Source: an uncultured Candidatus Micrarchaeota archaeon
Lineage (GTDB): Archaea > Micrarchaeota > Micrarchaeia > Anstonellales > Bilamarchaeaceae
DNA: 64,000 bases
Reading direction: 5' to 3'
Assembly (NCBI GenBank): GCA_963714085.1
Contig: OY970229.1
Location: 632,392 to 696,391 of the forward strand
Shown: in pieces, positions 25,455 through 51,399 of the stretch
Position numbering within the stretch: the first letter of the stretch is position 1
Layout of the letters: each line of letters opens with the position of its first letter
The notes under the pieces: model-generated
Told to the model about the DNA's origin: nothing
What the model saw: the letters and a program-made list of their open reading frames with translations, nothing else
Databases searched by the model: none
Made by a program: the position numbers and the translations under genes

Positions 25455-25514
25455 GGATTGCAATGGTACGAGAAAGCTTATTAAGTTGCGACGTGTATCG
25501 GTTTGGGAGAAGAC

Positions 25515-27080: not shown

Positions 27081-27908
27081 ATGCGACCGAGTACCCTGTT
27101 GATAGCGATTTTTGCGTTGGCAGCATTAGCCTCCGCGGTTCCGGTGCAGATGACATCCCCGTTCGAGCAGACCATCAACACCGGGGACACGGTCTTCATC
27201 GGGACAATAGGCCCTGGCCAGACGCTGGCTGTGGAGATAAACCCCATCGTGACCACAGGGGGGATCTACGGCGCAGGAGGCCAGTACGACATCGCACAGG
27301 TCTCCAACCTGCCGCCTGGCTGGAATGCGCAGCAGAGCAAGCTGTACCAGAACCCGCTCCAGGTCAAGATAACCGCCGACAAGGCAGCGCCCCCGGGCCA
27401 ATACAACGTGGACATCACGGTGATCAACGAGAACAACGGCGAGGAGCTCGGTAACGTCACGTTCACGGCGAGGATAAACGTAACCTGGGACGTGCTGGGC
27501 ATGAGCGTCTCCCCGACGCAGGCCATCGCCGGGCCGGGCCAGCCGGCCCAGTTCGGGATAACGATTATGAACAAGGGCTCTGCGAGCGACACCTATATCG
27601 TGAACGCGAGCGGGGTGGACCAGTGGGATTTCGTCAAGCAGGTCTATGTGCCGGCGCAGAGCTCGATAACGGTCCCCTACGAGATAGCCGGCAATGAGGA
27701 GGAGACTTACAACCCGAGCATAAGCGTGGTCTCGGTGTCGAGCGGCATAATACAGCAGGAGCAGAATGTCACGCTCACCGTGAGATCAGGCCTCATCGGG
27801 GACTATCGGGCGACCAGCGACGGCACGCTGCTTTTCCCGATCTTCGAGGCGCCTATATACGCCCTGGCAGGCCTTATCGGAGCTGCCGCTAAGCTGTTCG
27901 GATTATAA
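27081..27908 (+). CDS. Secreted protein with Ig-like/NEW3-like repeats and a C-terminal hydrophobic anchor
   Basis: Signal peptide LLIAIFALAALASA. Beta-rich repeats (KAAPPGQYNVDITV..., GPGQPAQFGITIMNKGSASDTYIV). C-terminal IYALAGLIGAAAKLFGL. Confidence 0.55.
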   Translation: MRPSTLLIAIFALAALASAVPVQMTSPFEQTINTGDTVFIGTIGPGQTLAVEINPIVTTGGIYGAGGQYDIAQVSNLPPGWNAQQSKLYQNPLQVKITADKAAPPGQYNVDITVINENNGEELGNVTFTARINVTWDVLGMSVSPTQAIAGPGQPAQFGITIMNKGSASDTYIVNASGVDQWDFVKQVYVPAQSSITVPYEIAGNEEETYNPSISVVSVSSGIIQQEQNVTLTVRSGLIGDYRATSDGTLLFPIFEAPIYALAGLIGAAAKLFGL

Positions 27909-29467: not shown

Positions 29468-30286
29468 TCAGGGCAGCCCTTCCGGGGGTTTGAGCAGCTC
29501 GTCCTGCTGCTTGAGCAGCTTCAGATACTCGTTCTGCAGGTCCGCGAACTCCTTCTCCTCCTCGTCGCTGAATATCCTGACATGGCGCACGGCGTTCTTC
29601 ACCTGTATCTTCGGCGAGATGTCCGCTATGAGCTTGAGGTTCTCGCTCAGCTTGTCCCGCACATCCGGCGTCACCCAGACCCTGCGGTTCTGCAGCTGGA
29701 CCGCTACCTCCGGATGAGTAGGCGCTGGGAATAGCGAGCCGTTACTCACCTCGGCGGGCATGCCCAGCCTTCCAAGGACCAGAGCGATCTCCCTGCCCAA
29801 AGGCTCCTCGCCTTTGAGTATAGGGATGGGGACATCGAGCTTGCCTTTGCGCACCTGCTCGGCCAGCGAGTCCCGGACGTCCTTCTGCAGCCTCGCGAGC
29901 AGGAGCGCGAGCTTGGCGATGCTCTCCCGCTCTTCGTAGTTCCGCTTGAGCAGCGCTCCGCGGCTGGAGAGGAGCTCGTAGCTGCCGCCCGCGCGCTTCG
30001 CCATGCAATCCGCCAGCTCCTTCGGCGGGCAGGAGGAGAGCAGCTGGTTGAGCCTCGCTATCTCCTGCTCGTTGGGAATTGCGATCTTCACCCCTGCGGC
30101 GTCCATCCTGGCCGAGAGCGCGTCGAGCTGACCCTGCACTGAGCGCAGGGCGGCCTCCGCCTGCTCCAGCGCGGCGGGTTCTGCCCCAGCGGACTTCCGG
30201 ACGTCCAGCTTGAACGACAGCTCAGCCCTGCTTTTGGCCAGTTCTAGGAACGTGACGAGGTCTTTTGATTCCACGCTTGGCGCCAT
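29468..30286 (-). CDS. Coiled-coil hypothetical protein (last gene of the long minus-strand run)
   Basis: 272 aa, Ala/Leu/Glu/Lys-rich heptad-like sequence. Its start overlaps the upstream gene's 3' end by about 65 nt, so the start is uncertain. Confidence 0.45.
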   Translation of the reverse strand: MAPSVESKDLVTFLELAKSRAELSFKLDVRKSAGAEPAALEQAEAALRSVQGQLDALSARMDAAGVKIAIPNEQEIARLNQLLSSCPPKELADCMAKRAGGSYELLSSRGALLKRNYEERESIAKLALLLARLQKDVRDSLAEQVRKGKLDVPIPILKGEEPLGREIALVLGRLGMPAEVSNGSLFPAPTHPEVAVQLQNRRVWVTPDVRDKLSENLKLIADISPKIQVKNAVRHVRIFSDEEEKEFADLQNEYLKLLKQQDELLKPPEGLP

Positions 30287-31970
30287 CGGATAACCCTTGG
30301 TCGTAGGCTTTCCTGACTAATATGTAGATTAGCACTATCAATATTAAAAACATTAACAACACGACGAGGATTGTCTGGAGGCCGGACGACGGCTGGGTTT
30401 GGGGCTGCGCCGCGGGGCGCGCCGATGATTCCATCCGCGCGAAGAGCGCGTCCAATCCCTCGGCGTAGCGCAGCGTGGTGAACGCCTCTGGCTCCAGGGA
30501 CGTGTTGTTCTGGGCCGCGAGCCATGCGGCGTGGGACTGGTAGACCGCGCCCCAGAGCGAGATCCGCTTCTCGGCCAGCATCGCCTGCACCTGCGATTTC
30601 ATGTCCGCGCTGCCCATGCCTACCATGTCGGAGTCCGCCTGGGAGGTCTCGATCACGTAGGTGCAGTCGAACAGCGCCGCGCCGTACCTGCCCTGGTCGA
30701 AGGACAGCCTGGCCGAATCCAGATGCTGCGCGAGGTCGGCATCCAGGTTGTCAAGGCCCTCGGCTTGGGCGAGCTCTGCGGACGCGAGCCCTTTCCATGC
30801 GGATTCGTTGAGCTCCGTGCCGTTCCTTCCAGCGGCGTCGCTGAGCAGGCCGGACACCGAGCACCAGGCGTAGGCGTACATGATCGCGTCGTAATCGCTG
30901 TACTTCTCATCGACCGTGTCCGCGCCAGAGATGTCCGTGGAGTTCAGCTGGTTCTCGGCCCAGGATCTCCGCGCGTCCGCGCCCACCAGCCATTGGAAGT
31001 TCTCGCTCGTCTTTGGGATGTCTGGCAGCGATGCTATGCACCTGGCCACGGATTCCTTCTCCGTCTGCAGGTCTGTGTCCTGGGTGAGCATGGCGCCCAC
31101 CGTGGAAGCCTCTATGTAATCCTCGAACGCCTCGTTGGCAGCGCTGAAGAGATAGCCTTTCCCCAGGATCTTCTCCTGCCTAGAGAGCTCCGAGGAGTAG
31201 TACTTCTTTATGGTGGCGGAATCGTTGTCCGATGACGGAAGGCCCTGGACGGTCCGGTTCTCCAGCGACATCATGCCGGCTGCCACGTTGTAGAAACCGG
31301 CCGCGGCGGATGGGTCGTACTGCGGCACGTCCGGGACCGGCTCGGACTCGCGTTCCAGTGATGGGGCGGGCAGGGACTGGTTGAAGAGCATGAATCCGAT
31401 TGCGTCGTCCATGTTCCCGGCCTCGACCACCCTGAGCCCGGTGGCCGCTTCGCTGTTCCTGAGCATGAGGGTGTCGAAGATGCTGTCGTTCGGAGTCATG
31501 AAGTACTTCGCGCCCGATGCCGCCACAGCCAGGGATTTCTCATAGAGCCCGCCGACCTGTCCGACGCCGCCTTCGGGGTCCACCGCGCCGGTCATCATGG
31601 CGTCCTGCCTCGGGGACATGCCGGTCGCGGCGCCATAGGTGAGGACGGCTATCGCGGCGCCCGCGCTGGGACCGTCCACGTAGCTGGCTGAACCCGAGCT
31701 GATGCTGACGATCGCATCGCAGCCGGACTCGTTGGCTTTCCCCAGCCCGTATTCCACGGCATCATGCACGGACTGCTGGGTTGTGGTGCTGGTCTGGGGA
31801 TAGACGGAAAGATACGCCCCTCCGCTCCCGGGCACGATTGTCACGGAGATGTTCACGGTATCCGAACCCGAGCCCACCACGGCCGGCACGCTCATACCCG
31901 CGCTGCCGTTGCACTGCGCAACGCAGAGGGCGCTCAGCAGGATGAGGAACAGAAAACATCGTGGGTCCAT
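30222..31970 (-). CDS. Exported, C-terminally membrane-anchored protein with a Lon (S16) protease-like domain
   Basis: Signal peptide MDPRCFLFLILLSALCVAQC. VDGPSAGAA (Lon catalytic Ser context) and VGGLYEKSLAVAASGAKYFMTP (catalytic Lys context). Long helical region. C-terminal TM ILVVLLMFLILIVLIYILV. Start set at the internal ATG (comp. 31968-31970). Confidence 0.7.
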   Translation of the reverse strand: MDPRCFLFLILLSALCVAQCNGSAGMSVPAVVGSGSDTVNISVTIVPGSGGAYLSVYPQTSTTTQQSVHDAVEYGLGKANESGCDAIVSISSGSASYVDGPSAGAAIAVLTYGAATGMSPRQDAMMTGAVDPEGGVGQVGGLYEKSLAVAASGAKYFMTPNDSIFDTLMLRNSEAATGLRVVEAGNMDDAIGFMLFNQSLPAPSLERESEPVPDVPQYDPSAAAGFYNVAAGMMSLENRTVQGLPSSDNDSATIKKYYSSELSRQEKILGKGYLFSAANEAFEDYIEASTVGAMLTQDTDLQTEKESVARCIASLPDIPKTSENFQWLVGADARRSWAENQLNSTDISGADTVDEKYSDYDAIMYAYAWCSVSGLLSDAAGRNGTELNESAWKGLASAELAQAEGLDNLDADLAQHLDSARLSFDQGRYGAALFDCTYVIETSQADSDMVGMGSADMKSQVQAMLAEKRISLWGAVYQSHAAWLAAQNNTSLEPEAFTTLRYAEGLDALFARMESSARPAAQPQTQPSSGLQTILVVLLMFLILIVLIYILVRKAYDQGLSDGAKRGIKRPRHVPRTGQKQG

Positions 31971-31978
31971 TGCGATCA

Positions 31979-32545
31979 CTATAGCCTTTTGGCTGCCAAT
32001 ATGCCCTTGTCCGTCTTGAAGAACTCGTATTCCTCCGCCAGATAGAGCTTGCCGAGCTGGGAGCCGGCCCCTTTTATCGAGTCCACTATGCTGCCGCTCG
32101 GCAGATCCTCGTAGAGGTAGGCCACTGCGTAGGACTTCCCCATGGACCTGGCGTCCTCCTCCCTCTGCCTGAGCAGGATGCGCCTTATGTCCCTGCCTTC
32201 GAAGGACAGCAGGACCGCGGGGTCTTCGAGATATATGGCGTTCGTCTGCTCCCCGCCCCGCACCGTGCGCCTCTCCGGGTCGTATACCGCGGGCCATGAG
32301 AGGCCCACGCCTATGAGCATGCGGTTGACGCAGCAGCCGAATGAGGTCTTGTAGTCTATTATGCCGCCGACCTCGGCAGGCGTGACGTCGAAGGCGCACT
32401 TCTGCATCACCTTGACGCATTCCTCCAGATCCTCGCGCGTGAGCCTCTTGACCTCGACCTGGTCCTCGTCGAGAAGGTAGAGGAATTTCTTCTTCTGGGC
32501 TTCCGGCTTCTTCTCCTCCTGCTTCAAGGCAAACGACTCGCTCAT
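31979..32545 (-). CDS. Hypothetical cytoplasmic protein (possibly GNAT-like fold)
   Basis: 188 aa with no TM. The weak resemblance to the acetyltransferase fold is an impression only. Confidence 0.45.
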   Translation of the reverse strand: MSESFALKQEEKKPEAQKKKFLYLLDEDQVEVKRLTREDLEECVKVMQKCAFDVTPAEVGGIIDYKTSFGCCVNRMLIGVGLSWPAVYDPERRTVRGGEQTNAIYLEDPAVLLSFEGRDIRRILLRQREEDARSMGKSYAVAYLYEDLPSGSIVDSIKGAGSQLGKLYLAEEYEFFKTDKGILAAKRL

Positions 32546-32563: not shown

Positions 32564-32902
32564 TCACATGAATTTCGTGTTGCATGCCGGGCACTGGGTG
32601 AGGAAGGCCTCGCTCCTGTACCCGCATATAGGGCATATGTAATAAGTCCTTTTAGCCCTTTCCAATTCGGCTTCGAAGCTGTATTTGCACTGGCCGCACC
32701 TCGGGGCGTCCAGCTCGTTGAGGAAACCGCAGTTCGGGCACTTGCGCCTGAACATGCTCTTTATGTGCGTGCCGCACTTCGGGCAGCGCTCCATGTCCAG
32801 CGTGACCGGGGCGCCGCAGTTCGGGCAGTTCTGCGACTGGCCCTTATGCGTGGAGCCGGACTGGCCGCGCAGCGCGTCCTTGAACATCTGGAGGATTCCC
32901 AT
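32564..32902 (-). CDS. Multi zinc-ribbon protein (six CxxC pairs)
   Basis: CPNCG...CPKCG...CPNCG...CGQCK...CPICG...CPACN in 112 aa. Confidence 0.7.
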   Translation of the reverse strand: MGILQMFKDALRGQSGSTHKGQSQNCPNCGAPVTLDMERCPKCGTHIKSMFRRKCPNCGFLNELDAPRCGQCKYSFEAELERAKRTYYICPICGYRSEAFLTQCPACNTKFM

Positions 32903-32910
32903 GCACCCAC

Positions 32911-35900
32911 CTATCCTGACCCGGGGGACGGCACGCAGTTTATGTCATAGTTCTTCACAGGCAGGCTGATGCCGCAGAACCCGCCCAGCTGGGTGAGCGA
33001 ATTGCCAGTCCCGATGCCGCAGTCCTGGTTCGCGTTTCCGGTCCTGGAGAACACCGCCGGGGCGGTCACGGACGTGTAGTACATCTGCTTGAAGTACGTG
33101 TAGTTGGCCCCGGTCGAATCCGTCAGGCAGCATTTGCCGGGCTTGCTCATGCCGGCCATCACGTCCTCGTAGGCGTCCGAGACCATGTTCACGGATTTCA
33201 CAAGCGGTTCTGACTCCTGGGTGCCGTTCCCGAAGCTCTCGGTGCAGTTGTATACCGTATTGGTCATGTTGCAGGGCGTGCATGGCTCGACCACGGTCTC
33301 ATCCGGGCATTTGTACTTGCCTACGTCCTCCAAGGGCACGCCCCCGGGCATCGTGCATTGGACGCCGTTGTCGCACGTCTTGCCGCACTCCCCCTGGGCC
33401 AGCTCCAGGGAGGTGCAGAGCGTGCAGTTCACGGACGGCACGGTAAACACCTGGACGAAAGTCGCGTACGGGTTGGTGCCGGCCATCCTGTTTATGGCGC
33501 TCTCGAGCGCGCAGAATTTCGTGGTTTTCATTCCGTATGGCAGTGCGATGCTGGTGCTAGTACCCGGCAGGGAAAACGACAGCACAGTGCTCACGAGGCT
33601 CTCCTTCTGCCCGGCCGTATTCGAGCTGTCGACGCGGACGGGCTGGTATATGAGGCCGATGATGCCGGCTTTCACCAGCTGGTCCTCGTTATTCACTATG
33701 CTGCTGAAGAGCGTCCCGTAGGTGTTGCCATTCCAGTATTGGTCGTCGGTCACGGTGAAATTGGTTATGATGACCGGCTTGCTATAGTTCAGCGCGGCCT
33801 CGCCATATGTCATCACGTCGTTGATCACGAATGAGGCCCTCGTGTCCGCTGTGATCGAACTGGCTGAGTATATCACCGTGTTCGCCAGCCGGGTTATGTA
33901 CCCCGCCAAGCCCAAAAATCCTCCTGCTGTGGCCGCCCCATTGCCGTAATTCGAGGTGTCGTAGTCGGTCACGATCATGTCGACGTTGACCTTCAGCCTC
34001 GGGTCGAAGCCGAATAGCTGGCTCAGGTCGTTATCGTAGGTCGATAACCCTACGCTGCTTCCTGGCACCCTAACCGCGGTCAGGCATCTGGGACAGGCCG
34101 CCCTGACCACCGCGGTCCTGTTCAATATCCTGTTCCTGGACAACGAAGCCGAGGAGGAATTGAACGTGTCCACGACCACCACTATCGCTCCGCTGTTGCC
34201 CAGGAGGCGCTGGAAATCGTACTCTTGGTACAGGCTCGAGTCCTGATGGCCCGATACTAAGCTGCTATCAACCCGTACTATCACATAGGGCGCGGTGAGG
34301 TTCCAGTTGCTGTTATCCGAGATGTCGATCACGGGCATTATGCCGGATTTGAGGTAGTTGCCCATGCGCTCCTTGATCAGGGTCGGGTCCTGGTCGGTCC
34401 TTGGAGCGCCTTCCGGAGTGACGTCGTAGGTGGTGTTCGTCACATAGACGCTGCCGCTGGTGCCCGAGTAGCCGTCTGTACTGCTGACGGATTCATAACC
34501 GGATGTCGACGTCACGTGATAGATGAACAGGTTGCTGTAATCTCCGATGTCGGTCACGTACGGGTCGCCGCAGGAGGTGGTAATGTTGCTCGGTGAGTTA
34601 GCCGTGATACTGCATATCGTGGTCGGGCTCACTCCCTGCCAGAGCTCCTGCTCCATCGATGGGATTGCCACCCTGTTGTCGCTGTTTGCGGATTTCGTGC
34701 CCGCTGTTATCTTCTGGTAAGCCAGGGTCGTGAGCGTGCACGGCTCGCACCAACCGAAGCTCTGGATCTGCGGCAGGGTCGAACCCGGCTCTATGTCGCA
34801 CCTGCCGATCTTCATGTTGCCCCCTGAATCCTTCGTGCCCACGAGCAGGTATATGGTGCTCGGGACCAGAGCCTGGTAAGCCATGGGTTGCCAGTCAAGT
34901 CCATTGCCCTGGCCCAGATTTATCTGCCTGATTGACGCCTTTTGGAGGTTGCAGAGGTTGTTTCCTGCGAAATAGGGCGAGGTTGTCTGCTGGTATATGT
35001 TGTCCTGGTCCCTGAAGAAGTTCAGCGCTGGCGAGTTCAGGATGTCGTACTCAGGGTCGCCATACTTGGGGTCGCCACCGCCGCCACCGCCGCCATCACC
35101 AGAATCGTCCCCGCTAGAAGAATAGTACGCTGGAATGGCCACGAATTTCTTGTACTCGGGTATCCACGGCATGGAGGCGAAGAACAGGTCATCGATGTCG
35201 ACTGAATTCGAGCGGTCGCAGTGCTCGTTCCACTCGTTAGCGTCATTCATATAGCCGTCCATGGTGTCGTTGTAGAGCGGCGCGAACGCGGTCAGAAGGC
35301 CTTGATAGGTGTCATAGAAGTCCTGCCCGGTGCCCGAGAGGTCGACTTTTATGTAGCTGGCGGTGGAAGGATAGCTGGTAACCGTATAATTGCACGGCGA
35401 GGGCGGCTCAGGATTGAATGTCGGGGCGTCTACCGGTGTGTCGGGGTTGGTTGTGTTGATGTAAGCTCTGCAATAAGCGAGGCATCTGCTTAATGTCGAA
35501 TAGGCGCCGTTGGCGTAATTAAACTCGTCAGCCGGGCACTTTCCTGACTTTCCTAGAGTTCCCGCGCAATCGTCCTGGCAGATGGTTACCATCTGGTTCG
35601 GGGTCACTGGCGAATTATAAATGGGTTGGCCCCCCGGCATAGCGTCGAACGAGTAGTTCAGCACTGTGCTCACGGACGCGAAGATGCAGCTCTTGGCGAA
35701 ATAGGTCTGCTCGAACTGCCCCGGGTCCGCCACCGCATAGCCGACTATGGTCTGGCCGTCGTATTGCACGTTCTGGTCGTCGAAGAACACGATCTGGCCC
35801 GCGGGCGGGTATGCGCCTGTCGTGTCCACATAGGAGTCCACCACATTGTTGGTCGAATCCCAGGTGACGCTGAAATCCGACGGAAGCAGGCTCACGGTCG

Positions 35901-37512
35901 CGGGGTCGCCGAACATCTCGTTCTGTATCGTATTGCCAAACTGATCCTGGTACGATCCAGTATTATAGAAGGAACCATCATTTGAGTCCCATAGCTGGAT
36001 GTAGGTGTTCGTACCATCGAAGTAACCGCCCCCAGATGTAAGAGGCGTAGTGAAGAAGTTGTTCCACATCCAGTCGAGCTGGCACTTGTCGTGCTTCTGC
36101 TCGCCGCTCGCCGCACAGCTCGGAATGCCAGCGATCGGTACGTTATCCTGGACATAAGGAGCGTTTTCGGTGTCGCTGCCTGCGTCCTGCAGCTGGTTCC
36201 TGTCGTAGTCCTCAGTGGCAAGCGTAAACTGGACCGGCCTGTAGGTTACGTTGGCGTACACGAAGCTGGCGGTACCGCCTGCGTTGCTCGCGTTGATGGT
36301 CGGGTAGCACACCACGACATTCTGGCCCGTCACCGTTTGGGTGCTCTTGCAGTCCGTGACCACGTAGCTCTGCGTGCCGGCCGCGTCCGTCACGACGTTC
36401 ACGCCCCTGCTGTAGAAATCGTTCGAGCATTCCCCGGAGAGGCACTCGTACGCGGATTTGTCGCACTCGAAGGGCGCGCGCCCCACCGTCGTGTTGTAGA
36501 ACTCCGGTATGTAAGCGGTGGAGAGCGCCTCCCTGTAGAATCCTTTATCCAGCTTCTCGTAGTAGTAAAGGGCAGATTTGTTCAGCCTGCTCGAGGAATT
36601 GGAATTGGGCCAGTCGACTACGCCGGTCGTCGGATGAAGCGTAACCGTCCAGGCATAACCGAGATAATCTATGTACTTGTAGGATTTGAAATCCGTGATG
36701 AAGCTCGGGTTCATGCTCAATGCCTTCGTGATGGTGACGTTCAAGAACGCGTTGGTTCCTGCGGTCGTGAGCGGCAGTATGCTCGCGGTCGGGGTTATGC
36801 TCGCTGGGGGCACCGGCGCCGCGTCGCTCGTGCATGATGTGTTCATCTTCGTCGGGTCGTAGGCGACGTAGGTGCCGGATGCGGTCCCGGGCTGCAGGTA
36901 ATTCATGTACCTGTCTATGGTCCCGGTGGGGTTGATCATGCAGTCCTTGTCCGATATGGGGAAGTAATAATGATAGTAGTCGTATTCGTCGAAATTCGCT
37001 CCTATGCCGAACCTGAAGTCCCCTACCGCGGATTTCGAGGTCTTCATGATCCTCTCGAAGCTCGAGTCCAGGGGAAGGAACCTGCACTGGCCGTTGTAGA
37101 GCGCCTGCGTTTTCGTGCTGGTGCTGCTGGTCGGCATCTCGTTCGCCGCCTCCTGCACCGAGGCCACCCCGGGCGCGACCTGGGGCGCATAGGCGAAATC
37201 GCCGCACGCCATGGCCAGGCAGTCCGGCTTTATGCACTCGGTCAGGTTGTCGTCCGTGCAGAATGGTATGGCAGAGTCGACCGAATCGATGGTGACGTTG
37301 CACATCTCGCTGGTCTGGTTGCAATAGATGGTCTGCGGGTACATGTCGATGAAGGCGTCGTTGGACATGTTGAACCAGTAGCATTTGCCGTCTTTGGTCG
37401 CGTTGTTCCTGACGCAGCAGCCCAGCTCCTTGGATTTGGTTATGCAGCCCGCGGAGAGCAGCATGGCGAAGGCGATCGCGAGCGAGATTGCGAGTGCGGT
37501 CCTGGGCTTCAT
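32911..37512 (-). CDS. Giant (1533 aa) exported Cys-rich, sequon-rich protein with a lipobox-like signal peptide
   Basis: N-terminus MKPRTALAISLAIAFAMLLSAGC. No other TM. Numerous Cys and N-x-S/T sites. Gly run SGDGGGGGGGDP. Start abuts the stop of the upstream membrane gene. Confidence 0.8.
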   Translation of the reverse strand: MKPRTALAISLAIAFAMLLSAGCITKSKELGCCVRNNATKDGKCYWFNMSNDAFIDMYPQTIYCNQTSEMCNVTIDSVDSAIPFCTDDNLTECIKPDCLAMACGDFAYAPQVAPGVASVQEAANEMPTSSTSTKTQALYNGQCRFLPLDSSFERIMKTSKSAVGDFRFGIGANFDEYDYYHYYFPISDKDCMINPTGTIDRYMNYLQPGTASGTYVAYDPTKMNTSCTSDAAPVPPASITPTASILPLTTAGTNAFLNVTITKALSMNPSFITDFKSYKYIDYLGYAWTVTLHPTTGVVDWPNSNSSSRLNKSALYYYEKLDKGFYREALSTAYIPEFYNTTVGRAPFECDKSAYECLSGECSNDFYSRGVNVVTDAAGTQSYVVTDCKSTQTVTGQNVVVCYPTINASNAGGTASFVYANVTYRPVQFTLATEDYDRNQLQDAGSDTENAPYVQDNVPIAGIPSCAASGEQKHDKCQLDWMWNNFFTTPLTSGGGYFDGTNTYIQLWDSNDGSFYNTGSYQDQFGNTIQNEMFGDPATVSLLPSDFSVTWDSTNNVVDSYVDTTGAYPPAGQIVFFDDQNVQYDGQTIVGYAVADPGQFEQTYFAKSCIFASVSTVLNYSFDAMPGGQPIYNSPVTPNQMVTICQDDCAGTLGKSGKCPADEFNYANGAYSTLSRCLAYCRAYINTTNPDTPVDAPTFNPEPPSPCNYTVTSYPSTASYIKVDLSGTGQDFYDTYQGLLTAFAPLYNDTMDGYMNDANEWNEHCDRSNSVDIDDLFFASMPWIPEYKKFVAIPAYYSSSGDDSGDGGGGGGGDPKYGDPEYDILNSPALNFFRDQDNIYQQTTSPYFAGNNLCNLQKASIRQINLGQGNGLDWQPMAYQALVPSTIYLLVGTKDSGGNMKIGRCDIEPGSTLPQIQSFGWCEPCTLTTLAYQKITAGTKSANSDNRVAIPSMEQELWQGVSPTTICSITANSPSNITTSCGDPYVTDIGDYSNLFIYHVTSTSGYESVSSTDGYSGTSGSVYVTNTTYDVTPEGAPRTDQDPTLIKERMGNYLKSGIMPVIDISDNSNWNLTAPYVIVRVDSSLVSGHQDSSLYQEYDFQRLLGNSGAIVVVVDTFNSSSASLSRNRILNRTAVVRAACPRCLTAVRVPGSSVGLSTYDNDLSQLFGFDPRLKVNVDMIVTDYDTSNYGNGAATAGGFLGLAGYITRLANTVIYSASSITADTRASFVINDVMTYGEAALNYSKPVIITNFTVTDDQYWNGNTYGTLFSSIVNNEDQLVKAGIIGLIYQPVRVDSSNTAGQKESLVSTVLSFSLPGTSTSIALPYGMKTTKFCALESAINRMAGTNPYATFVQVFTVPSVNCTLCTSLELAQGECGKTCDNGVQCTMPGGVPLEDVGKYKCPDETVVEPCTPCNMTNTVYNCTESFGNGTQESEPLVKSVNMVSDAYEDVMAGMSKPGKCCLTDSTGANYTYFKQMYYTSVTAPAVFSRTGNANQDCGIGTGNSLTQLGGFCGISLPVKNYDINCVPSPGSG

Positions 37513-38598
37513 TCATATCACCTTGGTCACCATTCTCATCAGCGTGTACGGGTCTCCGCCCAGCAGGGTCATCATGTAGCGCACGAAGGCGAGCGTGAGG
37601 AAGAGAGCGACGAGGGGCTGCAGTATGAGGCCTATGTAGGCCTGCGAGAGCTGGTCGCTGATACGGGCGAAGCTGAGCGACTGTGTCGCGGCGCCCGCGG
37701 TGTTGGTGGACACCATCGCCACCGCTGCGCTGAGCGTGGGATAGCAGAGCTGCTGCGCCAGGACCTGCGGGCTCCCCATGACCGGGGGCGAGTCCACCTT
37801 CACGAAGCCCGGGTCCAGAAGCACGAAGAAGACCGGGAACAGGAAGAAGAGCCCGACGCCGAGCGAGATGAACAGCGCGCCCGCGCCCCTCGTGAACTGG
37901 AACGAGCGGAGCAGTATGCCCAGCGGTATGAACATCGTCAGCATGGTGTTCTTCACGTAGAGCACCAGGAAGGACTGGGCGTCCAGCCCTATGAGCAGCA
38001 CCGTGGCGAGGTTGTTCGATATGCGTATGGACTCTGTCTCCTGGAACATGCTGCCTATCCAGTCGCCCCTGAACACTGTGATCCCGAAGAACGATACCTG
38101 CATGTTGAGCAGGTTGAAGTCCAAGGCGCTGCCGCTGACGATGGCGTCCTGGATCTTCGCTATGGCCATCGCCTTCTCCTGGAGCCTGCACTGCACTATC
38201 GCGAGCATATCCTGGAAGGATTGCGTTGCGACCTGGTCCGAGGTATCGGACGGGCCATTTATGTTTCCGGCCATGACCGGCATCTGCGTGCCGCCGCATG
38301 TGACGTAGGAGCTGCTGCTCCCCAGGACGCCGGCCACGAACGAGCCCGCGCCGGTGACGATGGTGGCGCCGCCGATGAGACACATCGCCATCAGGGCGGT
38401 TGCGATCGCCTGGAGTATCTCGGATTCGGCGTAATGCTCCAGCTCGGTCATTTTGAATGCCTTGGCGAACGCGATGAACAGGGCGTAGATGGTGACGGCT
38501 ATCAGCGTGGCGAGTATGCACATGGGGAGCCAGCTGGCCCAGCTCCCGAAGAAATCCATGGCGTCAAGCAGCGGCATAACAGGCAACATAGTCATCAC
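37513..38598 (-). CDS. Polytopic membrane protein, paralog F of a six-member tandem family
   Basis: 361 aa. Motifs HYAESEILQAIAT, GILLRSFQFTRGAGALFISLGVGLFFLFP, and C-terminal LLGGDPYTLMRMVTKVI. ATGA overlap with the upstream paralog. Confidence 0.8.
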   Translation of the reverse strand: MMTMLPVMPLLDAMDFFGSWASWLPMCILATLIAVTIYALFIAFAKAFKMTELEHYAESEILQAIATALMAMCLIGGATIVTGAGSFVAGVLGSSSSYVTCGGTQMPVMAGNINGPSDTSDQVATQSFQDMLAIVQCRLQEKAMAIAKIQDAIVSGSALDFNLLNMQVSFFGITVFRGDWIGSMFQETESIRISNNLATVLLIGLDAQSFLVLYVKNTMLTMFIPLGILLRSFQFTRGAGALFISLGVGLFFLFPVFFVLLDPGFVKVDSPPVMGSPQVLAQQLCYPTLSAAVAMVSTNTAGAATQSLSFARISDQLSQAYIGLILQPLVALFLTLAFVRYMMTLLGGDPYTLMRMVTKVI

Positions 38599-39770
38599 AC
38601 CATCTGGAGCAGCCTGCTCAGGTCTATCTCCTCACCGTAAATCCTCGCCAGGTAGTTCACCGAGGCCAGTGCCGCGAGCAGCGCGGCGGTCGGCAGGAAC
38701 ACTCCGGCTATGAACGCGTAGGCCGCGAATGCTATCGCCCCCGCGGCGTTATCGACGCCGCCCGGGAAATATAACTTCTCGAAGTAGGCCGCCCCGCTGC
38801 TCAACGCGGCCGCCGTGGATGCGCCCAGCGCGCTGGCGCCGGCATTGTTGGGGAACACGTTCTCGTCCAGGAAGGGCGCCACATTCTGAGGCGGGCTCAG
38901 CAGCACGTCCGTCATCATCCCGAGTATCGCGAGCATGAGGGGGTATATCACCATGAACGAGAGGGCCAGGGCTATGAGCAGGGAGCCGAAGGAGCGCATG
39001 TAGGGCATGGAGCGCATGAATATGGCGAACGGGAGCAGGAACAGCACGAATCCCTTGTATATGAACATCAGTATGAACAGGAAATTGAGCGTCGTAAGGT
39101 ATGCGACGAGGGTGCTGTTGAAGAACAGGTTGAGGGGGCCCATGACCGAGGAATAGGCGCCGAGGGCCGGGCCCTGGGTGCCGGAATAGGAGAAGAAGCA
39201 GCCCCACCCTATTGCCGGGATCGTGAAGACCCCGAAGACGCTTATCGGCGGCTGCCTCAGGTCGCAGCTGAACATGCTTATCTGGCTCAGGATGGTGAAG
39301 GCCTCGAGATGGTAGCGCACCATCATGAGCGCGGTATGGCTGTAGATCAGCGTATTGGTGAGGTACGCCTGCGCCGCGGAGTACACCGAGCCGGAGTAGT
39401 CCGAACCGATGGGCACCCCGAATATGGACGCCACGTCGCCCATGTTTATCGCGCAGAAGGAGTCCACCAGGAAGAGCAGGAGCGCCACTGAGGCCACGGA
39501 CATGAGTATCTGGATTATCTCCCCTTTGGCCCAGACGGTCACCTTGGGATTGCTTATGATCTGGCCTATGTAATAGCCGAACACTATGATCATTATGCCG
39601 GCCGCGCTTGCGATCGCGCATATGTCCAGTATCGGTCCGTTGAGGATCGTGTCGAATCCCGGGGAGCACACCTCGGTCCCTTCGATCGGCGGCGTAGCCG
39701 GTGGCACGGCCGCGTGCAGGGCGCTTATCAGCAGGAGGAGGAACGCGAGGAGGAGGATGTGTTTCGCCAT
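38595..39770 (-). CDS. Polytopic membrane protein, paralog E
   Basis: 391 aa. Signal peptide MAKHILLLAFLLLLISALHA. Motifs TVWAKGEIIQILMS, AIFMRSMPYMRSFGSLLIALALSFMVIYP, and C-terminal IYGEEIDLSRLLQMV. Confidence 0.8.
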   Translation of the reverse strand: MAKHILLLAFLLLLISALHAAVPPATPPIEGTEVCSPGFDTILNGPILDICAIASAAGIMIIVFGYYIGQIISNPKVTVWAKGEIIQILMSVASVALLLFLVDSFCAINMGDVASIFGVPIGSDYSGSVYSAAQAYLTNTLIYSHTALMMVRYHLEAFTILSQISMFSCDLRQPPISVFGVFTIPAIGWGCFFSYSGTQGPALGAYSSVMGPLNLFFNSTLVAYLTTLNFLFILMFIYKGFVLFLLPFAIFMRSMPYMRSFGSLLIALALSFMVIYPLMLAILGMMTDVLLSPPQNVAPFLDENVFPNNAGASALGASTAAALSSGAAYFEKLYFPGGVDNAAGAIAFAAYAFIAGVFLPTAALLAALASVNYLARIYGEEIDLSRLLQMV

Positions 39771-40748
39771 TCAGACCACCCTCGACAGCGCGCTCACGTC
39801 GACCTCCGCTCCGGCGAGCGAGGTTATGGCCCTTATGCCAGCGCTCATCATGAGCACCGCGACGACGGGGCCCAGCGTGGCTTTCACGAATATCAGGTAC
39901 ATGTAGGACTTTATCGCGGTCCTGAGCGAATTGTACACTTTTATGGCGGCGTCCGAATTGCCGTCACCGACGTCGCCCGGCGTGCATGAGGGGCTGATGC
40001 CGCTCAGGCTCCCGCTCCCGGGCTGGTAGCCGGCCGCGTCCGGGCTGGCCAGGAACGACTTGCCGAGTATGTCAACGAAGACTATGCCCATGGGCAGCAG
40101 GAGGTAGAGGGAGATGGCCAGCGCGATGAGGAAGCCGCCCGCGCCGCGCGTGAACCTGAAGGTGCGCAGCACGATGCCCAGCGGCAGGATCAGGTTCAGC
40201 CCGTAATTGACCGCGATGTCTATCAGCCGGTAGGCCGCGTTCAGCTCGCCCAGCGCGAAGCCCATGATGGTGCCTGCCAGCGAGAACGGGCCCGCGAGCA
40301 TGGAGAACCCGCCGCATCCGGACACGGAGTATCCTATGCCCTGGAGGTTGCAGGAGAGCATCTGGGAGCCCTGTATGCCCGCGTTCTTGTCCACCGCGCG
40401 CACGTCGTCATATGCCGAGGACAAGTCGGTTATGGAGGTGTTCAGGCTGTCGAGGGCGGCCAGCTGCAGCGTGGGCGCTCCCTGGGTGAGGTCCGAATTC
40501 GTTGACAGCCCGTCTATGAAACTGTTCGCGCCGTAGAAGACCGCGATCATGATGGCGAGCGCGATGAGCTGGTAGACCTCGTCCTTGGCCAGCGCGGTGA
40601 GGGCGTCGACGCCGAAGCCGAACCCTATCATGTACACCACCGCGACCAGTATGAGGGATGTGAGGATGGCCAGGGCTGCCGTGTCCTGCCATGCGGCGAA
40701 GCTGGCGGACACCAGCAGGAACAGCGCCAGCAATGCCTTTCCCTTCAT
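39771..40748 (-). CDS. Polytopic membrane protein, paralog D
   Basis: 325 aa. Signal peptide MKGKALLALFLLVSASFA. Motifs LAKDEVYQLIAL, GIVLRTFRFTRGAGGFLIALAISLYLLLP, and C-terminal LAGAEVDVSALSRVV. Confidence 0.8.
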   Translation of the reverse strand: MKGKALLALFLLVSASFAAWQDTAALAILTSLILVAVVYMIGFGFGVDALTALAKDEVYQLIALAIMIAVFYGANSFIDGLSTNSDLTQGAPTLQLAALDSLNTSITDLSSAYDDVRAVDKNAGIQGSQMLSCNLQGIGYSVSGCGGFSMLAGPFSLAGTIMGFALGELNAAYRLIDIAVNYGLNLILPLGIVLRTFRFTRGAGGFLIALAISLYLLLPMGIVFVDILGKSFLASPDAAGYQPGSGSLSGISPSCTPGDVGDGNSDAAIKVYNSLRTAIKSYMYLIFVKATLGPVVAVLMMSAGIRAITSLAGAEVDVSALSRVV

Positions 40749-40757
40749 AATATCGCC

Positions 40758-42890
40758 TCAGAATATCCTTGACATGCCCGGGATCTCCACGTCCCCGCCA
40801 AGCATCTCGGAGAGGGACTTTATCACTATGAGCGTCGCTGCTATGTTCAGCAGCGGAAGCAGGTAGGCCGGCCCCATGAACTTGGCCACAGACTGTATCT
40901 CCTGCGCGCCGACCATGCCCTCGGCCCCTATCTGGGTATACGCGCCGGACGTCTTGGACGGCCCGCTGTCCGAAGGCGCGCACAGGTTCGTGCATTCGGT
41001 GTCTATCGGAGGGTTGTAGGTGTACGACTCCTGGCTGGTCGCGCACGTGTCGCATGAGCTGTAAGGCACCTGCACCCGATAATCCAGGGGGCAGCTCGTG
41101 GGGGAGCAGTCCTCGTGTATAACCCAAAAGTCGAAGTCAGTGAGGTATAGGGCCGGGAGGTTCGTGCCGATTATCCTCATATCCTCCGGGCAGGTGCTGC
41201 AATTGATGCTGTCCGTGGGGGCCTTCGCCTCTATGGCGGCCAGCGGCACCTTGCACGTGTCAGGGCATTGCTTGCACGAGACGCCGTCCTCGCTGTCATT
41301 GCTGCAGTATTCCGGGAGTATCTTCGACATGTCGGACGTGCCGTTGTTCATCCTGCACTCCTCCGGGCATCCGGTGCACAGGTCGTCGCACGAGCCGAAA
41401 TTGGGCATCACCCAGACGCAGCTCTGGTTCGCGTCCAGGCTCGCGATGCAGTCCTTGGGATACGTGTTGCAGCGGCTGGCGTTCGCGACGCTCGGGTCCA
41501 CGGAGGGCCTCCAACTCAGGTCGCTCACCTCCGCCACCCTGCAGTCGAACCTCGACTGCAGGCAGTTGCCTCCTGACTTGTTCCCGTTATTGGCGTTCAG
41601 ATCGCAGTCGCTCCTCAGCGGCGGGACTATCTTGCACTCGCTGGGGCATGCGGCCGCCTCGGTGGTGTTGATATGCACGATTATGCGGGTCACCTTGCAT
41701 TCCGCTGGAAGCGCCGCGCATGCGAACTGCTGGGTGTAGTTCGCGCACAGGTTGGAGCCTGCCGGGTAGGGAAGATCCCTGCAGGAGCGGTCGCAAGCAA
41801 TGTCACACTGACCGTTTCCTCCGCAGCTCGGATCGGTTATATGCACGGTCCAGTTCTCGCAGGAGGTCACGTTTACGCCGGAGTTGTTGAGCATGGAGTG
41901 GGTGTTGCCGAGTATGAGGTCCCTGACGGCGTCTGTCTGCGAGTCGTCGAACAGGGCGTATACCTGCGTGGTGGTGTTCAGGGCCACCGTCTCGCCGCCC
42001 TGCTTGTAAAAGGCGATCGGAGCCACGTAGCTGCATTCCGCTGGGCAGAAGCTGGGGAGCGTACTGCTCGCGTCCCCGGTTATCGTCATGTCGAGGCTCA
42101 TCCAGTCGAAGATGTACATGGCCGGGAAGAAGAACATCACTCCCACGGCGATTGCTATGAGGAGGCCGCCTACCTTGCGCGATATGAAGAACGACCGCGC
42201 CACTATGCCCAGCGCGAGAAGGAGCGGCGCGACCTTGAAGCATATCTCGCTCACGAAGAATACCTGGGAGTATAGCGAGGACAGCACGCCCTGGTAGTAC
42301 TCGAAGACCAGGCCGTACCTGTCGGCATCCAGTATGTAATTGGCCCAGAGCGACCATGTCACCCCGGCCTCCGCGCACCATACCGAGTAGCAGTAGATCC
42401 CGAAGCGCCTGTTCGCCCAAGCGGTGGCCACCAGGTCCTGGTGCAGCACGTTCTTCGCACCGTCCTGCGCGATTCCTATGTAGTCGCTCAGGTAGGCGTT
42501 CGCGGTCTTGTTCAGGCAGTTCTCGCCGGGGACGCAGTGGAGGCCTCCTATGCCGGAGGCGTTCACCATGGTCATGGTCGTGACATCCATGAGCGCGACT
42601 ACGCCTATGAGCGCGATCACGATGATCGCGTTCGCGAACACCTGGCCAAGCTCGCTCCTAGCCCAGGCCTGCATCTCGGGCAGCTCGAATCCTATACCCA
42701 CCATGTAGCCGATGCCCACGAGCACGGTGGATAACACGAGGGCGATCACCGAGATGGACTGCCAGTTGTTGAACAGCTCGAACGCGGAGCTGGACGGAGC
42801 CTGCTGCACGACCTGGGTGACGTTCTGGGCGAGCGCCGTGGCTGATAGCAGCAGAAGGACGATCGCCAGCGTGAGTCTGTGCTTCATCAT
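40758..42890 (-). CDS. Polytopic membrane protein, paralog C, with a ~360-aa Cys-rich ectodomain insertion
   Basis: 710 aa. Signal peptide MMKHRLTLAIVLLLLSATALA. Motifs AWARSELGQVFAN, GIVARSFFISRKVGGLLIAIAVGVMFFFP, and C-terminal MLGGDVEIPGMSRIF. The insertion carries CPAEC, LPAEC, CPSEC, CPEEC, CPDTC and CPED motifs. Confidence 0.8.
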   Translation of the reverse strand: MMKHRLTLAIVLLLLSATALAQNVTQVVQQAPSSSAFELFNNWQSISVIALVLSTVLVGIGYMVGIGFELPEMQAWARSELGQVFANAIIVIALIGVVALMDVTTMTMVNASGIGGLHCVPGENCLNKTANAYLSDYIGIAQDGAKNVLHQDLVATAWANRRFGIYCYSVWCAEAGVTWSLWANYILDADRYGLVFEYYQGVLSSLYSQVFFVSEICFKVAPLLLALGIVARSFFISRKVGGLLIAIAVGVMFFFPAMYIFDWMSLDMTITGDASSTLPSFCPAECSYVAPIAFYKQGGETVALNTTTQVYALFDDSQTDAVRDLILGNTHSMLNNSGVNVTSCENWTVHITDPSCGGNGQCDIACDRSCRDLPYPAGSNLCANYTQQFACAALPAECKVTRIIVHINTTEAAACPSECKIVPPLRSDCDLNANNGNKSGGNCLQSRFDCRVAEVSDLSWRPSVDPSVANASRCNTYPKDCIASLDANQSCVWVMPNFGSCDDLCTGCPEECRMNNGTSDMSKILPEYCSNDSEDGVSCKQCPDTCKVPLAAIEAKAPTDSINCSTCPEDMRIIGTNLPALYLTDFDFWVIHEDCSPTSCPLDYRVQVPYSSCDTCATSQESYTYNPPIDTECTNLCAPSDSGPSKTSGAYTQIGAEGMVGAQEIQSVAKFMGPAYLLPLLNIAATLIVIKSLSEMLGGDVEIPGMSRIF

Positions 42891-42891
42891 G

Positions 42892-43854
42892 TCACCCTAG
42901 TGCCCGCAATGCTTTGTTAGTTGCAGCGATGAAGGTTATGAACATTGCCATTGTGAGGTTCGGCAGGAAGAACGCCTGCGGTATCAGCCTCCCCACGTTC
43001 CAGAACCCGTAGGTGGCGCAGCCCGGGCCGAACACGAAATCGTTGACGCCGGCGGCGAACGTGCTGCAGTTCTGGCCCATTATGTCGTACATGGACAGGT
43101 TGAACGCGTACATGAAGGGCACGAGCACGTAGAGCCCCACAGCCACGGCGATGAGCATGTTGCCCATGTTGCGGAAGGGGGGTATCACCCTGAAGAGGAA
43201 CGCTATGGGCAGCACCCAGGTTATCACGTTGCTGTTTATGAATTCCAGGACCATCTTCTGCATGTTGATGCTGATGAGCGCGGGCAGCACGAAGCTGTTC
43301 ATCACCATGTCGTACTGCTGGGCATGCACCTTGAGGTAGCTGTCCGCCACCGCGGTGTACGCGTCCATCAAGGGAATCTGGACCGTGAATGCGAATGTGG
43401 ACTGCATCATGAGCTGTATGTTCTGGTTGATGTAGTACTGGGCGATGTTGTCCGCGTCGTCCTGCGCCATTTTGATGTAGCACATGGAGGTCGCGTTCAT
43501 GTTGCCTTGCACGTAGCACGAGAGGGTCCCCATCTTGGACATTGTGGAATCGAAGAAATAGTTCATGGTCTGGCAGGAGACGAGCAGTATGCCGGAGAAG
43601 CCGATGAGCAGCAGGATCGAGAAGAACAGATGGTAGAGCTCGTCCTTTGCCAGCACGGTGAGCCCGGAGTTGCTCGTGATGCTGCCGCCCGCGTACGCGA
43701 CCGCGATTATCATCACCGTCAGGCTGAATGCCGCGACTATCGCCGCCCCCTGGCCGTTCACCGGATCCAGTATCGCCTGGGTGGCATTGCCTATGCAGGA
43801 CGATGCGGAGAACACCGCGGGCATCAGGAGAAGGAGCAGCAGCAGGCGCCTCAT
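42892..43854 (-). CDS. Polytopic membrane protein, paralog B
   Basis: Start at MRRLLLLLLLMPAVFSASSC (comp. 43852-43854), overlapping the paralog A stop by 1 nt. Motifs LAKDELYHLFFS and AFLFRVIPPFRNMGNMLIAVAVGLYVLVP. Confidence 0.75.
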   Translation of the reverse strand: MRRLLLLLLLMPAVFSASSCIGNATQAILDPVNGQGAAIVAAFSLTVMIIAVAYAGGSITSNSGLTVLAKDELYHLFFSILLLIGFSGILLVSCQTMNYFFDSTMSKMGTLSCYVQGNMNATSMCYIKMAQDDADNIAQYYINQNIQLMMQSTFAFTVQIPLMDAYTAVADSYLKVHAQQYDMVMNSFVLPALISINMQKMVLEFINSNVITWVLPIAFLFRVIPPFRNMGNMLIAVAVGLYVLVPFMYAFNLSMYDIMGQNCSTFAAGVNDFVFGPGCATYGFWNVGRLIPQAFFLPNLTMAMFITFIAATNKALRALG

Positions 43855-45059
43855 CACACAAACCTCTGTATCCCGGCTAGATACCATTCGCCGCCGAGCG
43901 CAGTCGAGATGCTGCGCGCCCCGGACATGGTTATTATCGCTATCACTATGGTGTCGAGGTAGCTGAGCAGGATGGCGTTGTTAACGTTGCTCAGGAAGGT
44001 CACGAGCACTCCGAACGCCTGGTCAGTGTAGCCGACGCCCTCCCCGGCGAACGCGATCCAGGCCCCGAGGGCGGTGTCGTAGCTGACCTGCAGGCCTATC
44101 ATGAGGAGGGGGTATACGACGTACTGCACCAGGTCCTGGCATGGCAGGAAGAATCCGGCTGTCCAGGGGGTCAGAAGGAGCGGCAGGCACACCACTATGG
44201 AGAAGAGGAGGTCGTTGAGCGAGAGGAGCACGCGTATGGGCATGAGCTCGCAGAACGGCTGCGCCACGGTCATCGCCCACGTGCCCGGGTCCAGCTGGTC
44301 CAGCTGGGAGCTGGTCAGGTATGCCTTCGGATAGTCGATGACCTTGTTCGTCTCTCCGATCAGGATGACCGAGAACGGCACGAGCACCATGCCCGCGAGG
44401 CAGATGGCGACCAGCGTGTTCCCGGTTTTCCGCGTGAACGGGATCATGCGGAGGGAGAGCGAGACGGGCAGCAGCACCGCGGGCACGGCAGTGGCGCAGA
44501 ATTTGAGGATGAACAGCAGGCCCTCGTAGATGAAGATGCTGTTCGCGATGCCGCTGGTCGCTGAGGTGAGCGAGGAGAAAAGCGGGGCCACGCCGCCCAG
44601 CGGGGACGTCGAGTATGTCAGGCCCACTACGTACAGGGGGACGCTGATGTATGGGGAATACGTCGCAGCGGCCCTTATCTTGGTCGCGGCCCTTATGATG
44701 TCGTCGAACGACCGGTCCAACCCGGTCGTCTGGTTAGTCATGAGGTTGGTTATGACGTCCTGCGAAGCGGTCAGGTAATCTCCCTGACCGGTTATCGCCT
44801 TCGTCAGGCTCGTGGAGCCCACGAAGAACGCGTATATGAGCGCCGCGAGTATCACGCCGGCGATGAGCTCCCGGAGCTCGTTCTTGGACCAGGCCTCCAG
44901 CTGGGGCGATGAGACCGCGGTGGAGAGCATCATCATCAGTGCGAGGAATATGGCCACCAGCACGGCCGTGATCGGCACTATTGACGTGAAGTCGGGGCCG
45001 GATGCGAATGAGAGTCCGAGCACGATTAGCAATAGCAATAGGTGCCTGAACGGACGCAT
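43854..45059 (-). CDS. Polytopic membrane protein, paralog A (first gene of the operon)
   Basis: 401 aa. Signal peptide MRPFRHLLLLLIVLGLSFASG. Motifs AWSKNELRELIAG, LSLRMIPFTRKTGNTLVAICLAGMVLVP, and C-terminal ALGGEWYLAGIQRFV. Confidence 0.8.
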   Translation of the reverse strand: MRPFRHLLLLLIVLGLSFASGPDFTSIVPITAVLVAIFLALMMMLSTAVSSPQLEAWSKNELRELIAGVILAALIYAFFVGSTSLTKAITGQGDYLTASQDVITNLMTNQTTGLDRSFDDIIRAATKIRAAATYSPYISVPLYVVGLTYSTSPLGGVAPLFSSLTSATSGIANSIFIYEGLLFILKFCATAVPAVLLPVSLSLRMIPFTRKTGNTLVAICLAGMVLVPFSVILIGETNKVIDYPKAYLTSSQLDQLDPGTWAMTVAQPFCELMPIRVLLSLNDLLFSIVVCLPLLLTPWTAGFFLPCQDLVQYVVYPLLMIGLQVSYDTALGAWIAFAGEGVGYTDQAFGVLVTFLSNVNNAILLSYLDTIVIAIITMSGARSISTALGGEWYLAGIQRFV

Positions 45060-51397: not shown

Positions 51398-51399
51398 CG

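Follow-up and report, generated by a model that had tools for sequence, protein, structure and literature searches.

Located at 32911..37512 on the minus strand of a 64,000-nucleotide stretch of DNA from an uncultured Candidatus Micrarchaeota archaeon (GenBank assembly GCA_963714085.1, contig OY970229.1, positions 632,392 to 696,391; hereafter the window) is a gene for a cysteine-rich exported protein of 1533 residues, which we call the giant. The open reading frame (ORF) was called with an ATG start, and this ATG comes directly after the TGA stop codon of a membrane protein gene (paralog F, 37513..38598), the gap being 0 nt. An earlier reading of the sequence letters (the preliminary description) had likewise placed the start codon against this stop; since it gave no strand, we add that both genes lie on the minus strand. 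By composition, the giant is made up foremost of threonine (9.7%), serine (9.3%), glycine (7.9%), alanine (7.2%), aspartate (7.0%), asparagine (6.8%), and tyrosine (6.2%), and the mature protein has a computed mass of about 164 kDa and an isoelectric point (pI) of 4.3. More conspicuously, its 51 cysteines represent 3.3% of all residues, as compared with 1.18% across the other ORFs of the window, and there are 28 N-x-S/T sequons where 18.6 are expected by composition (shuffle P = 0.011), corresponding to 18.3 per 1000 residues against 5.9 in the other window ORFs. This sequon enrichment is genuine yet modest. A BLAST search for internal repeats in the giant revealed none.

To place the giant in a family, we searched 5.8 billion proteins and recovered 35 full-length relatives of 1262-1753 residues with identity down to 22% and no Pfam domain in any of them, and all those with a named source are Micrarchaeota or Bilamarchaeaceae. 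The giant is encoded by a real gene that is under purifying selection. The preliminary description had allowed for an ORF that is not expressed or is frameshifted in related genomes, and we find it intact in all relatives. Nor does the giant show sequence-level homology to any known family of S-layer proteins or enzymes, the other outcome that had been foreseen: it gave no match in Pfam, NCBIfam, or PHROGs, sequence and profile searches of the protein data bank (PDB) gave nothing meaningful, and no consistent family emerged when all 35 members were scanned against Pfam, with no glycoside hydrolase (GH) family and no PF05123 at E<=0.1. Moreover, when a profile of the C-terminal 500 residues was run as a full HMMER search against 1.84 billion cluster representatives, there were 246 matches, of which the best 150 share the long architecture of the giant, those named being again Micrarchaeota. 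Among the GTDB species representatives, we found 62 loci with intact giant orthologs, mostly labelled Micrarchaeota and including the named orders Anstonellales and Micrarchaeales, the other labels being 'archaeon' (three), 'uncultured archaeon' (two), and 'ainarchaeum sp.' (one). None of the loci comes from a genome labelled as another phylum. A further search with a profile of divergent giant members gave only 7 proteins, with no cultured-species names among them, and in the literature on Micrarchaeota (S-layer, cysteine-rich proteins, lipobox, VirB6, dark matter, and gene clusters) we found no description of the giant locus. No relative of the giant was found among the IMG/VR viral contigs, and we rejected a viral or mobile origin of the locus on account of this and of its conserved housekeeping neighbourhood.

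Only one hydrophobic segment of the giant rises above the threshold in a hydropathy scan (residues ~3-25), and it ends in LLSAGC. From hydropathy and the alignment, residues 1-23 (37444..37512, minus strand) can be described as a signal peptide with a lipobox-like end (...MLLSAG followed by C), in which Cys23 would be the lipidated first residue of the mature protein. Gly22-Cys23 is invariant across the 35 homologs, and in 35/35 a hydrophobic region followed by G-C is found at residues ~16-24, which supports the lipoprotein-type signal of the preliminary description; the scan agrees with its lack of any further transmembrane (TM) segment. As a lipobox pattern, we applied [LVI][ASTVI][GAS]C right behind the hydrophobic region with the cysteine invariant; the giant itself reads S-A-G-C with a serine at the -3 position, while many homologs read LSGC, AAGC, or LAGC and some FFGC or LFGC. 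Archaeal lipobox cysteines gain a thioether-linked archaeol through AliA/AliB, and AliA has been reported in DPANN archaea (PMC12462473). With the AliA/AliB-dependent lipoproteins of Haloferax volcanii (PMC12462473), the giant shares a signal peptide that ends in a small residue and an invariant cysteine, as well as a predicted extracytoplasmic, glycosylated state, but it differs from them in having Ser rather than Leu, Val, or Ile at -3 and in being far larger than typical substrate-binding lipoproteins. Export of the giant is supported by these features, and it is probably lipid-anchored.

The sequons and cysteines of the giant differ in how they are conserved. Whereas cysteine richness is family-wide (41-107 per homolog), a high sequon count is specific to lineages (6-29 per homolog). 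Besides the G22-C23 pair, about 35 cysteines are invariant or near-invariant in the alignment, in support of the cysteine richness and of a stabilisation by cysteines as in the preliminary description; the sequon richness that it also stressed is statistically detectable, though modest and lineage-specific. Individual sequons are nevertheless strongly conserved, foremost N72 (35/35 homologs), followed by N48 (30/35), N37 (29/35), and N1429 (27/35), and the giant is probably N-glycosylated at such specific sites. Elsewhere in the window, a 191-residue ORF (1455-2030, plus strand) with no Pfam match has a canonical lipobox (MLLAITG followed by C), then a linker of ~90 residues and a small globular domain, with 14 N-x-S/T sequons in the linker (73 per 1000 residues), which suggests that the source organism makes N-glycosylated lipoproteins. 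A further exported ORF of 186 residues (2461-3021, minus strand) has 9 sequons, repeated 'QNG(T/A)W' motifs, and no Pfam match.

Along its length, the giant can be divided into several regions, all encoded on the minus strand. Next to the signal peptide is an N-terminal cysteine-rich module (residues 24-105; 37198..37443), which is delimited by the alignment and modelled by AlphaFold2 with a predicted local distance difference test (pLDDT) score of 73-86 for residues ~31-84. It contains the invariant cysteines 32, 33, 44, 71, 85, 93, 98, and 103 along with the sequons N37, N48, and N72. By the conservation profile, the most conserved stretch of the family follows at residues 140-210 (36883..37095), with the motif FRxGxGxSFDEFxxYRYYFPxSDKxC...DRYMNYL and with F166, R167, G169, G171, F184, P185, D188, R201, N204, and Y205 invariant. 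The SGDGGGGGGGDP linker at residues 804-815 (35068..35103) lies in a variable, gap-rich region (alignment occupancy 0.54, identity 0.19). Further on, an invariant GWCEPC motif at residues 920-925 (34738..34755), identified in the alignment, includes the first of four conserved CxxC motifs, which start at residues 922, 1140, 1363, and 1411. The C-terminal cysteine-rich domain (residues 1361-1533; 32914..33432), defined by the alignment and modelled at pLDDT 80-89 up to ~1480, contains a CTLC...C...C...C pattern, CPDE...CTPC, a CC pair at 1461/1462, and the conserved sequons N1415 and N1429; its cysteine clusters are at residues 1363-1387 and 1402-1415.

For the structure of the C-terminal half, we used AlphaFold2 on residues 720-1533 with the 35-sequence alignment, which gave a mean pLDDT of 72, with values mostly above 80 from about 1109 to 1479. 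In this model, eight strand-helix units at residues ~1043-1360 (33433..34386) form a (β/α)8 triosephosphate isomerase (TIM) barrel with a GH-like fold. A Foldseek search of the PDB with the C-terminal model gave 91 matches at E<=1e-3, and foremost among these were GH10 xylanases, GH2 β-glucuronidases, and GH5 glucanases and mannanases (E 7e-6 to 4e-4, probability 1.0). At or just after the strand ends of the barrel, D1063, N1069, W1070, Y1184, W1260, and Y1289 are conserved, and D1099 and D1178 are conserved away from the strand ends. However, mapping conservation onto the strands revealed no glutamate that is invariant anywhere in the barrel; at the end of strand 4, D1183-Y1184-D1185 takes the place of the N-E-P of clan GH-A, and conservation is poor around strand 7. 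The modelled fold thus resembles that of clan GH-A (GH10, GH5, and GH2), though the giant lacks the Asn-Glu of strand 4 and the Glu of strand 7, has no Pfam or PDB sequence signal for the clan, and carries its barrel embedded in a 1533-residue cysteine-rich protein. Because the catalytic signature that defines clan GH-A is missing, we would not file the giant as a glycoside hydrolase. The preliminary description had recognised no catalytic motif, and this is correct as regards the canonical glutamate pair, though it did not foresee that residues ~1043-1360 would model as a GH-like barrel. Its proposal that segment-wise structure prediction with Foldseek might reveal known folds was fruitful for the C-terminal half only: the N-terminal half (residues 24-760) was modelled at pLDDT 67, with well-modelled β-rich parts, and Foldseek searches of the PDB and BFVD with it gave no fold match (best E 0.49).

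Upstream of the giant on the same strand are six membrane protein genes, which we denote paralogs A to F in the order of transcription. As the first gene of the operon, paralog A (43854..45059, 401 residues) is followed by paralogs B (42892..43887, 331 residues, with a true start probably at 43854), C (40758..42890, 710 residues), D (39771..40748, 325 residues), E (38595..39770, 391 residues), and F (361 residues), all on the minus strand. These proteins are mutually homologous, with pairwise E-values of 1e-14 to 1e-5, and each combines a signal peptide with five TM segments. Paralog D is the minimal form, with little else than these segments, an R-x5-R-x2-G loop, and a conserved C-terminal tail, while paralog C has an insert of ~410 residues between TM4 and TM5 that contains 39 cysteines and 15 sequons. 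Such a cysteine- and sequon-rich insert must be extracytoplasmic, and therefore the topology of the family is fixed. Predicted in this way, the N-terminus and a ~100-residue loop after TM2 would be outside, with the R-x5-R-x2-G loop (TM3-TM4) and the tail (LGGE...R.V) inside. As a result of the R-loop and the C-terminal tail being inside, the residues conserved across the whole paralog family would face the cytoplasm. We identified at least 154 homologs of the paralogs, all in Micrarchaeota and all without Pfam domains, and the paralogs themselves have no Pfam, NCBIfam, PHROGs, or PDB sequence match. Profile searches of the PDB with the paralogs labelled A2, A3, and A6 likewise gave nothing meaningful, the best for A3 being a chance match at E 0.07.

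To compare the locus across genomes, we ran profiles of the window genes against all translated ORFs of the GTDB loci. Wherever a locus extends far enough upstream, the giant is preceded on the same strand by exactly six membrane genes, with sizes of about 400, 335, 700, 330, 355, and 345 residues. By best match, the order is ABCDEF in 50/60 loci, and most of the exceptions come from contigs that are truncated or from divergent lineages in which the assignment is ambiguous. That homologs of the giant might occur beside the same membrane paralogs in other genomes, as the preliminary description had suggested looking for, is thus the case, and the functional coupling that it proposed is strengthened by the constant order of six paralogs and then the giant in every sufficiently long locus (62 species-level genomes). 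This comparison across loci speaks strongly for the giant and the paralogs working together.

Several other genes accompany the paralogs and the giant. Divergently transcribed from paralog A is the gene of a single-pass protein of 1133 residues (45110..48511, plus strand), which has a signal peptide, a ~180-residue cysteine-rich ectodomain, a TM segment at 201-219, and a ~900-residue Lys/Thr/Gly-rich cytoplasmic region, and for which we found no Pfam, NCBIfam, or PHROGs family and no meaningful PDB match. Across loci, the single-pass protein has 1000-2000 residues; its gene lies upstream in divergent orientation in some clades, and in others it comes right after the giant on the same strand. 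In the window, the minus-strand genes downstream of the giant encode a cytoplasmic double zinc-ribbon protein (32564..32902; 112 residues with 12 cysteines; PF12773 DZR, E 4e-16), which begins 8 nt downstream of the giant, a soluble protein of 188 residues with no family match (31979..32545), and an exported protein of 582 residues with a Lon_C (S16) protease domain (30222..31970; PF05362, E 8e-10). From paralog A through the Lon_C gene, the gaps between genes are -1 to 18 nt. The zinc-ribbon, 188-residue, and Lon_C genes and that of a 272-residue protein are usually downstream of the giant, the first three being syntenic in most loci, and Pfam, NCBIfam, PHROGs, and PDB sequence searches with the 188- and 272-residue proteins gave nothing. 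Given its signal peptide, C-terminal TM anchor, 12 sequons, and lack of an ATPase domain, the Lon_C protein is an extracytoplasmic Lon-like protease and a candidate for processing or quality control in the module. The zinc-ribbon protein, the 188-residue protein, and the long tail of the 1133-residue protein would be on the cytoplasmic side, as are the conserved parts of the paralogs. BLAST comparisons revealed no similarity of the giant to the paralog C insert, the ectodomain of the 1133-residue protein, or the Lon_C protein.

In some metagenome-assembled genomes, the core module is duplicated as a unit, with two complete copies in PMV_4.13 (loci L009 and L039) and C2.bin.27 (L012 and L024), and two copies are also seen with L038/L049. 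The duplicated copies are on different contigs, and the second copy is without the zinc-ribbon, 188-residue, and Lon_C genes within the downstream sequence at hand. In a divergent locus (L068, 1-21533), the third membrane gene is enlarged to 1143 residues and a gene for 2469 residues follows the giant, and therefore the module tolerates large ectodomain expansions. Also in the window, 6 kb from the giant locus, is a HAS-barrel/DUF87 HerA-type ATPase gene (25503-27026, plus strand), which is on the opposite strand with the housekeeping gene ELP3 between it and the operon. It is followed by the gene of a 275-residue protein (27081-27908, plus strand) that has no family match and in which NurA was not detected, and in about 40% of the related loci the two genes are found in synteny with ELP3. 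We rejected the ATPase as a dedicated partner of the module, as it is within 10 kb in 26/67 loci and tracks the neighbouring ELP3.

Taken together, none of the eight core proteins (the six paralogs, the giant, and the single-pass protein) belongs to a described family, and the sole known link is the fold-level similarity of one domain. We know of no counterpart to the fixed six-paralog arrangement. With a confidence that stops a little short of even, we favour the reading that the giant is a lipid-anchored, glycan-facing extracytoplasmic subunit of an undescribed envelope complex specific to Micrarchaeota. In such a complex, the giant would be exported by Sec and then lipidated at the conserved Gly-Cys in the manner of an archaeal lipobox, so that an acidic protein of ~164 kDa would be tethered to the outer face of the cytoplasmic membrane. 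It would be N-glycosylated, and its cysteines would stabilise it via disulfides or metal. The membrane base could be a hetero-oligomer of paralogs A-F joined by the single-pass 1133-residue protein, and the C-terminal half of the giant would present a GH-like TIM barrel without the canonical catalytic glutamates. This barrel most likely would bind glycans, or might cleave them by a non-canonical mechanism, possibly with the N-terminal domains taking part. The target glycans could be those of the host glycocalyx or of the symbiont's own S-layer or envelope; in the one pair studied, the host surface carries galactose and mannose (PMC8975820). Hence, lipidation, complex formation, a location beneath or through the S-layer, and a glycan-directed role of the giant are all points that we infer. 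A surface-displayed adhesin, as pictured in the preliminary description, is not supported; with a lipid anchor, the giant would be at the outer side of the cytoplasmic membrane and might be covered by the S-layer.

Several points weigh against this reading. The lipobox of the giant, with its serine at -3, is not a textbook one. The Foldseek matches are loose, with a TM-score of ~0.48 on the target, an rmsd of ~8 Å, and 10-14% identity, and the lack of an invariant glutamate at the ends of strands 4 and 7 means that the modelled barrel may be purely structural. The main function of the giant may lie in its N-terminal half, which is its most conserved part and for which the moderate-confidence model has no fold match. 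As well, operon adjacency is no proof of physical association. With more reserve, and as a proposal that we hold less likely than not, the eight-gene core together with its zinc-ribbon, 188-residue, and Lon_C companions could be seen as an undescribed phylum-specific trans-envelope machine, one with a pseudo-hexameric membrane ring of the six paralogs, a glycan-recognising ectodomain, and a function in host docking and uptake. Though made from unrelated parts, it would be the archaeal counterpart of the type IV secretion system (T4SS)-like machinery on which ultra-small Patescibacteria depend to grow as epibionts.

Other explanations of the locus differ in what they make of the barrel and the paralogs. 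Were the giant an active extracytoplasmic glycosidase or glycan processor, acting on host glycans, exopolysaccharide, or the organism's own envelope, with the paralogs as an uptake or export permease, then the clan GH-A-like fold and the conserved acidic and aromatic residues near the strand ends would be accounted for, and cultured Micrarchaeota, being unable to make their own carbohydrates, do rely on host sugars (bioRxiv 10.1101/2021.04.28.441871). We consider this unlikely, though, as the glutamates that would serve as acid/base (end of strand 4) and nucleophile (end of strand 7) lack conservation, there is no Pfam match, the C-terminal profile matches only the 246 representatives mentioned above (the best 150 with the same architecture), and the barrel makes up only ~20% of the giant. 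A somewhat more remote alternative is a highly diverged T4SS- or Ced-like trans-envelope conduit for the exchange of DNA, protein, or metabolites with the host, in which the paralogs would be a VirB6-like channel and the giant an extracellular cap or adhesin. The predicted paralog topology would agree with that published for VirB6. With VirB6/TrbL and CedA, the paralogs would share a size of ~300-400 residues, an N-out/5-TM/C-in arrangement, a large outside loop, and a presumed role as a multimeric platform. Even so, the module has a fixed set of six paralogs where those systems have one gene, no sequence similarity of the paralogs to TrbL/VirB6 or CedA was detected, nor any match in Pfam, NCBIfam, or PDB sequences, and we saw nothing like a pilin, VirB3, or VirB8 gene in the operon. 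In addition, no VirB4-type ATPase is consistently linked to the paralogs, and the HerA-type ATPase gene that could speak for a conduit, lying 6 kb away, is on the opposite strand behind ELP3 and found within 10 kb in only those 26 of 67 loci. There is a conceptual analogue in ultra-small Patescibacteria, which cannot grow as epibionts without T4SS components (PMC12102498).

Less probable still is that the giant is an S-layer protein, or a membrane stalk or anchor of the S-layer, in spite of its being large, acidic, exported, and probably glycosylated. To our knowledge, S-layer genes do not come with a dedicated membrane operon of six paralogs, which we count against this idea, as we do the lack of a PF05123 match in the giant family (0/35 members) and the cysteine content of 3.3%. 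Micrarchaeota do have an S-layer, with a pseudoperiplasm of 20-25 nm, and its experimentally identified protein, Micr_00292, is a 101-kDa protein with PF05123 and almost no sulfur-containing residues (bioRxiv 10.1101/2021.04.28.441871). This protein (SLP_Mh) shares with the giant its phylum and its exported, acidic, glycosylated character, whereas it differs in the PF05123 domain, in having almost no cysteine, in mass (101 versus 164 kDa), and in operon context, and we rejected the identification of the cysteine-rich giant with it. The least probable explanation is that the giant is a fusogen or pore former in a membrane-fusion or cytoplasmic-bridge machine at the host contact site. The restriction of the family to an obligately host-associated phylum would agree with such a role, and a cysteine-rich, glycosylated, membrane-tethered ectodomain does resemble those of viral and cellular fusogens, but no structural match to BFVD viral proteins or PDB fusogens was obtained, no hydrophobic fusion loop or TM anchor is evident in the giant, and it has no relatives on viral contigs.

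A further comparison is with surface proteins of other DPANN archaea, for example the SPEARE proteins of Nanohaloarchaeota, which are large exported proteins of host-dependent DPANN archaea with a proposed role in host contact. The giant is not homologous to them, and no protease, adhesin-repeat, or restriction-endonuclease domain was detected in it; instead, it is encoded by a single-copy core gene in a fixed operon. DPANN archaea recognise and attach to their hosts and take up lipids, sugars, and nucleotides from them, and we know of no dedicated machinery for this that has been identified in Micrarchaeota. Here, the giant locus offers a concrete candidate for such machinery, one that can be tested directly, as there are co-cultures of Micrarchaeum harzensis with Scheffleriplasma and of Microcaldus ARM-1 with Metallosphaera. 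Even if the role should be one of housekeeping envelope biogenesis, the fixed six-paralog assembly and the half of the giant that matches no fold would be new structural biology.

Of the other genes in the window, one (11162-12667, plus strand) encodes a fusion of HMA, DsbD_2 (a CcdA-like thiol-disulfide transporter), and cupredoxin domains and adjoins the gene of a copper-type P1B ATPase (12672-14945, plus strand). Such a DsbD-type reductant exporter could serve the extracytoplasmic cysteines of the module, although the setting points to copper handling. Near the giant locus, a TnpB/IS605 OrfB-type gene (OrfB_IS605 and a Cas12f1-like TNB; 51435-52688, minus strand) is the one mobile element that is evident. 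Two Rfam tRNA matches at 4918-5044 (127 nt) and 56732-56852 (121 nt), both on the plus strand and neither reported by ARAGORN, are probably intron-containing archaeal tRNAs, and a tRNA-intron endonuclease gene is at 24314-24814. Finally, an ornithine/aspartate carbamoyltransferase (50003-51442, minus strand) has a C-terminal Lys/Glu-rich extension of ~160 residues with three 'KKEGKPFWxLGFGxES' repeats, which is unusual for this enzyme.

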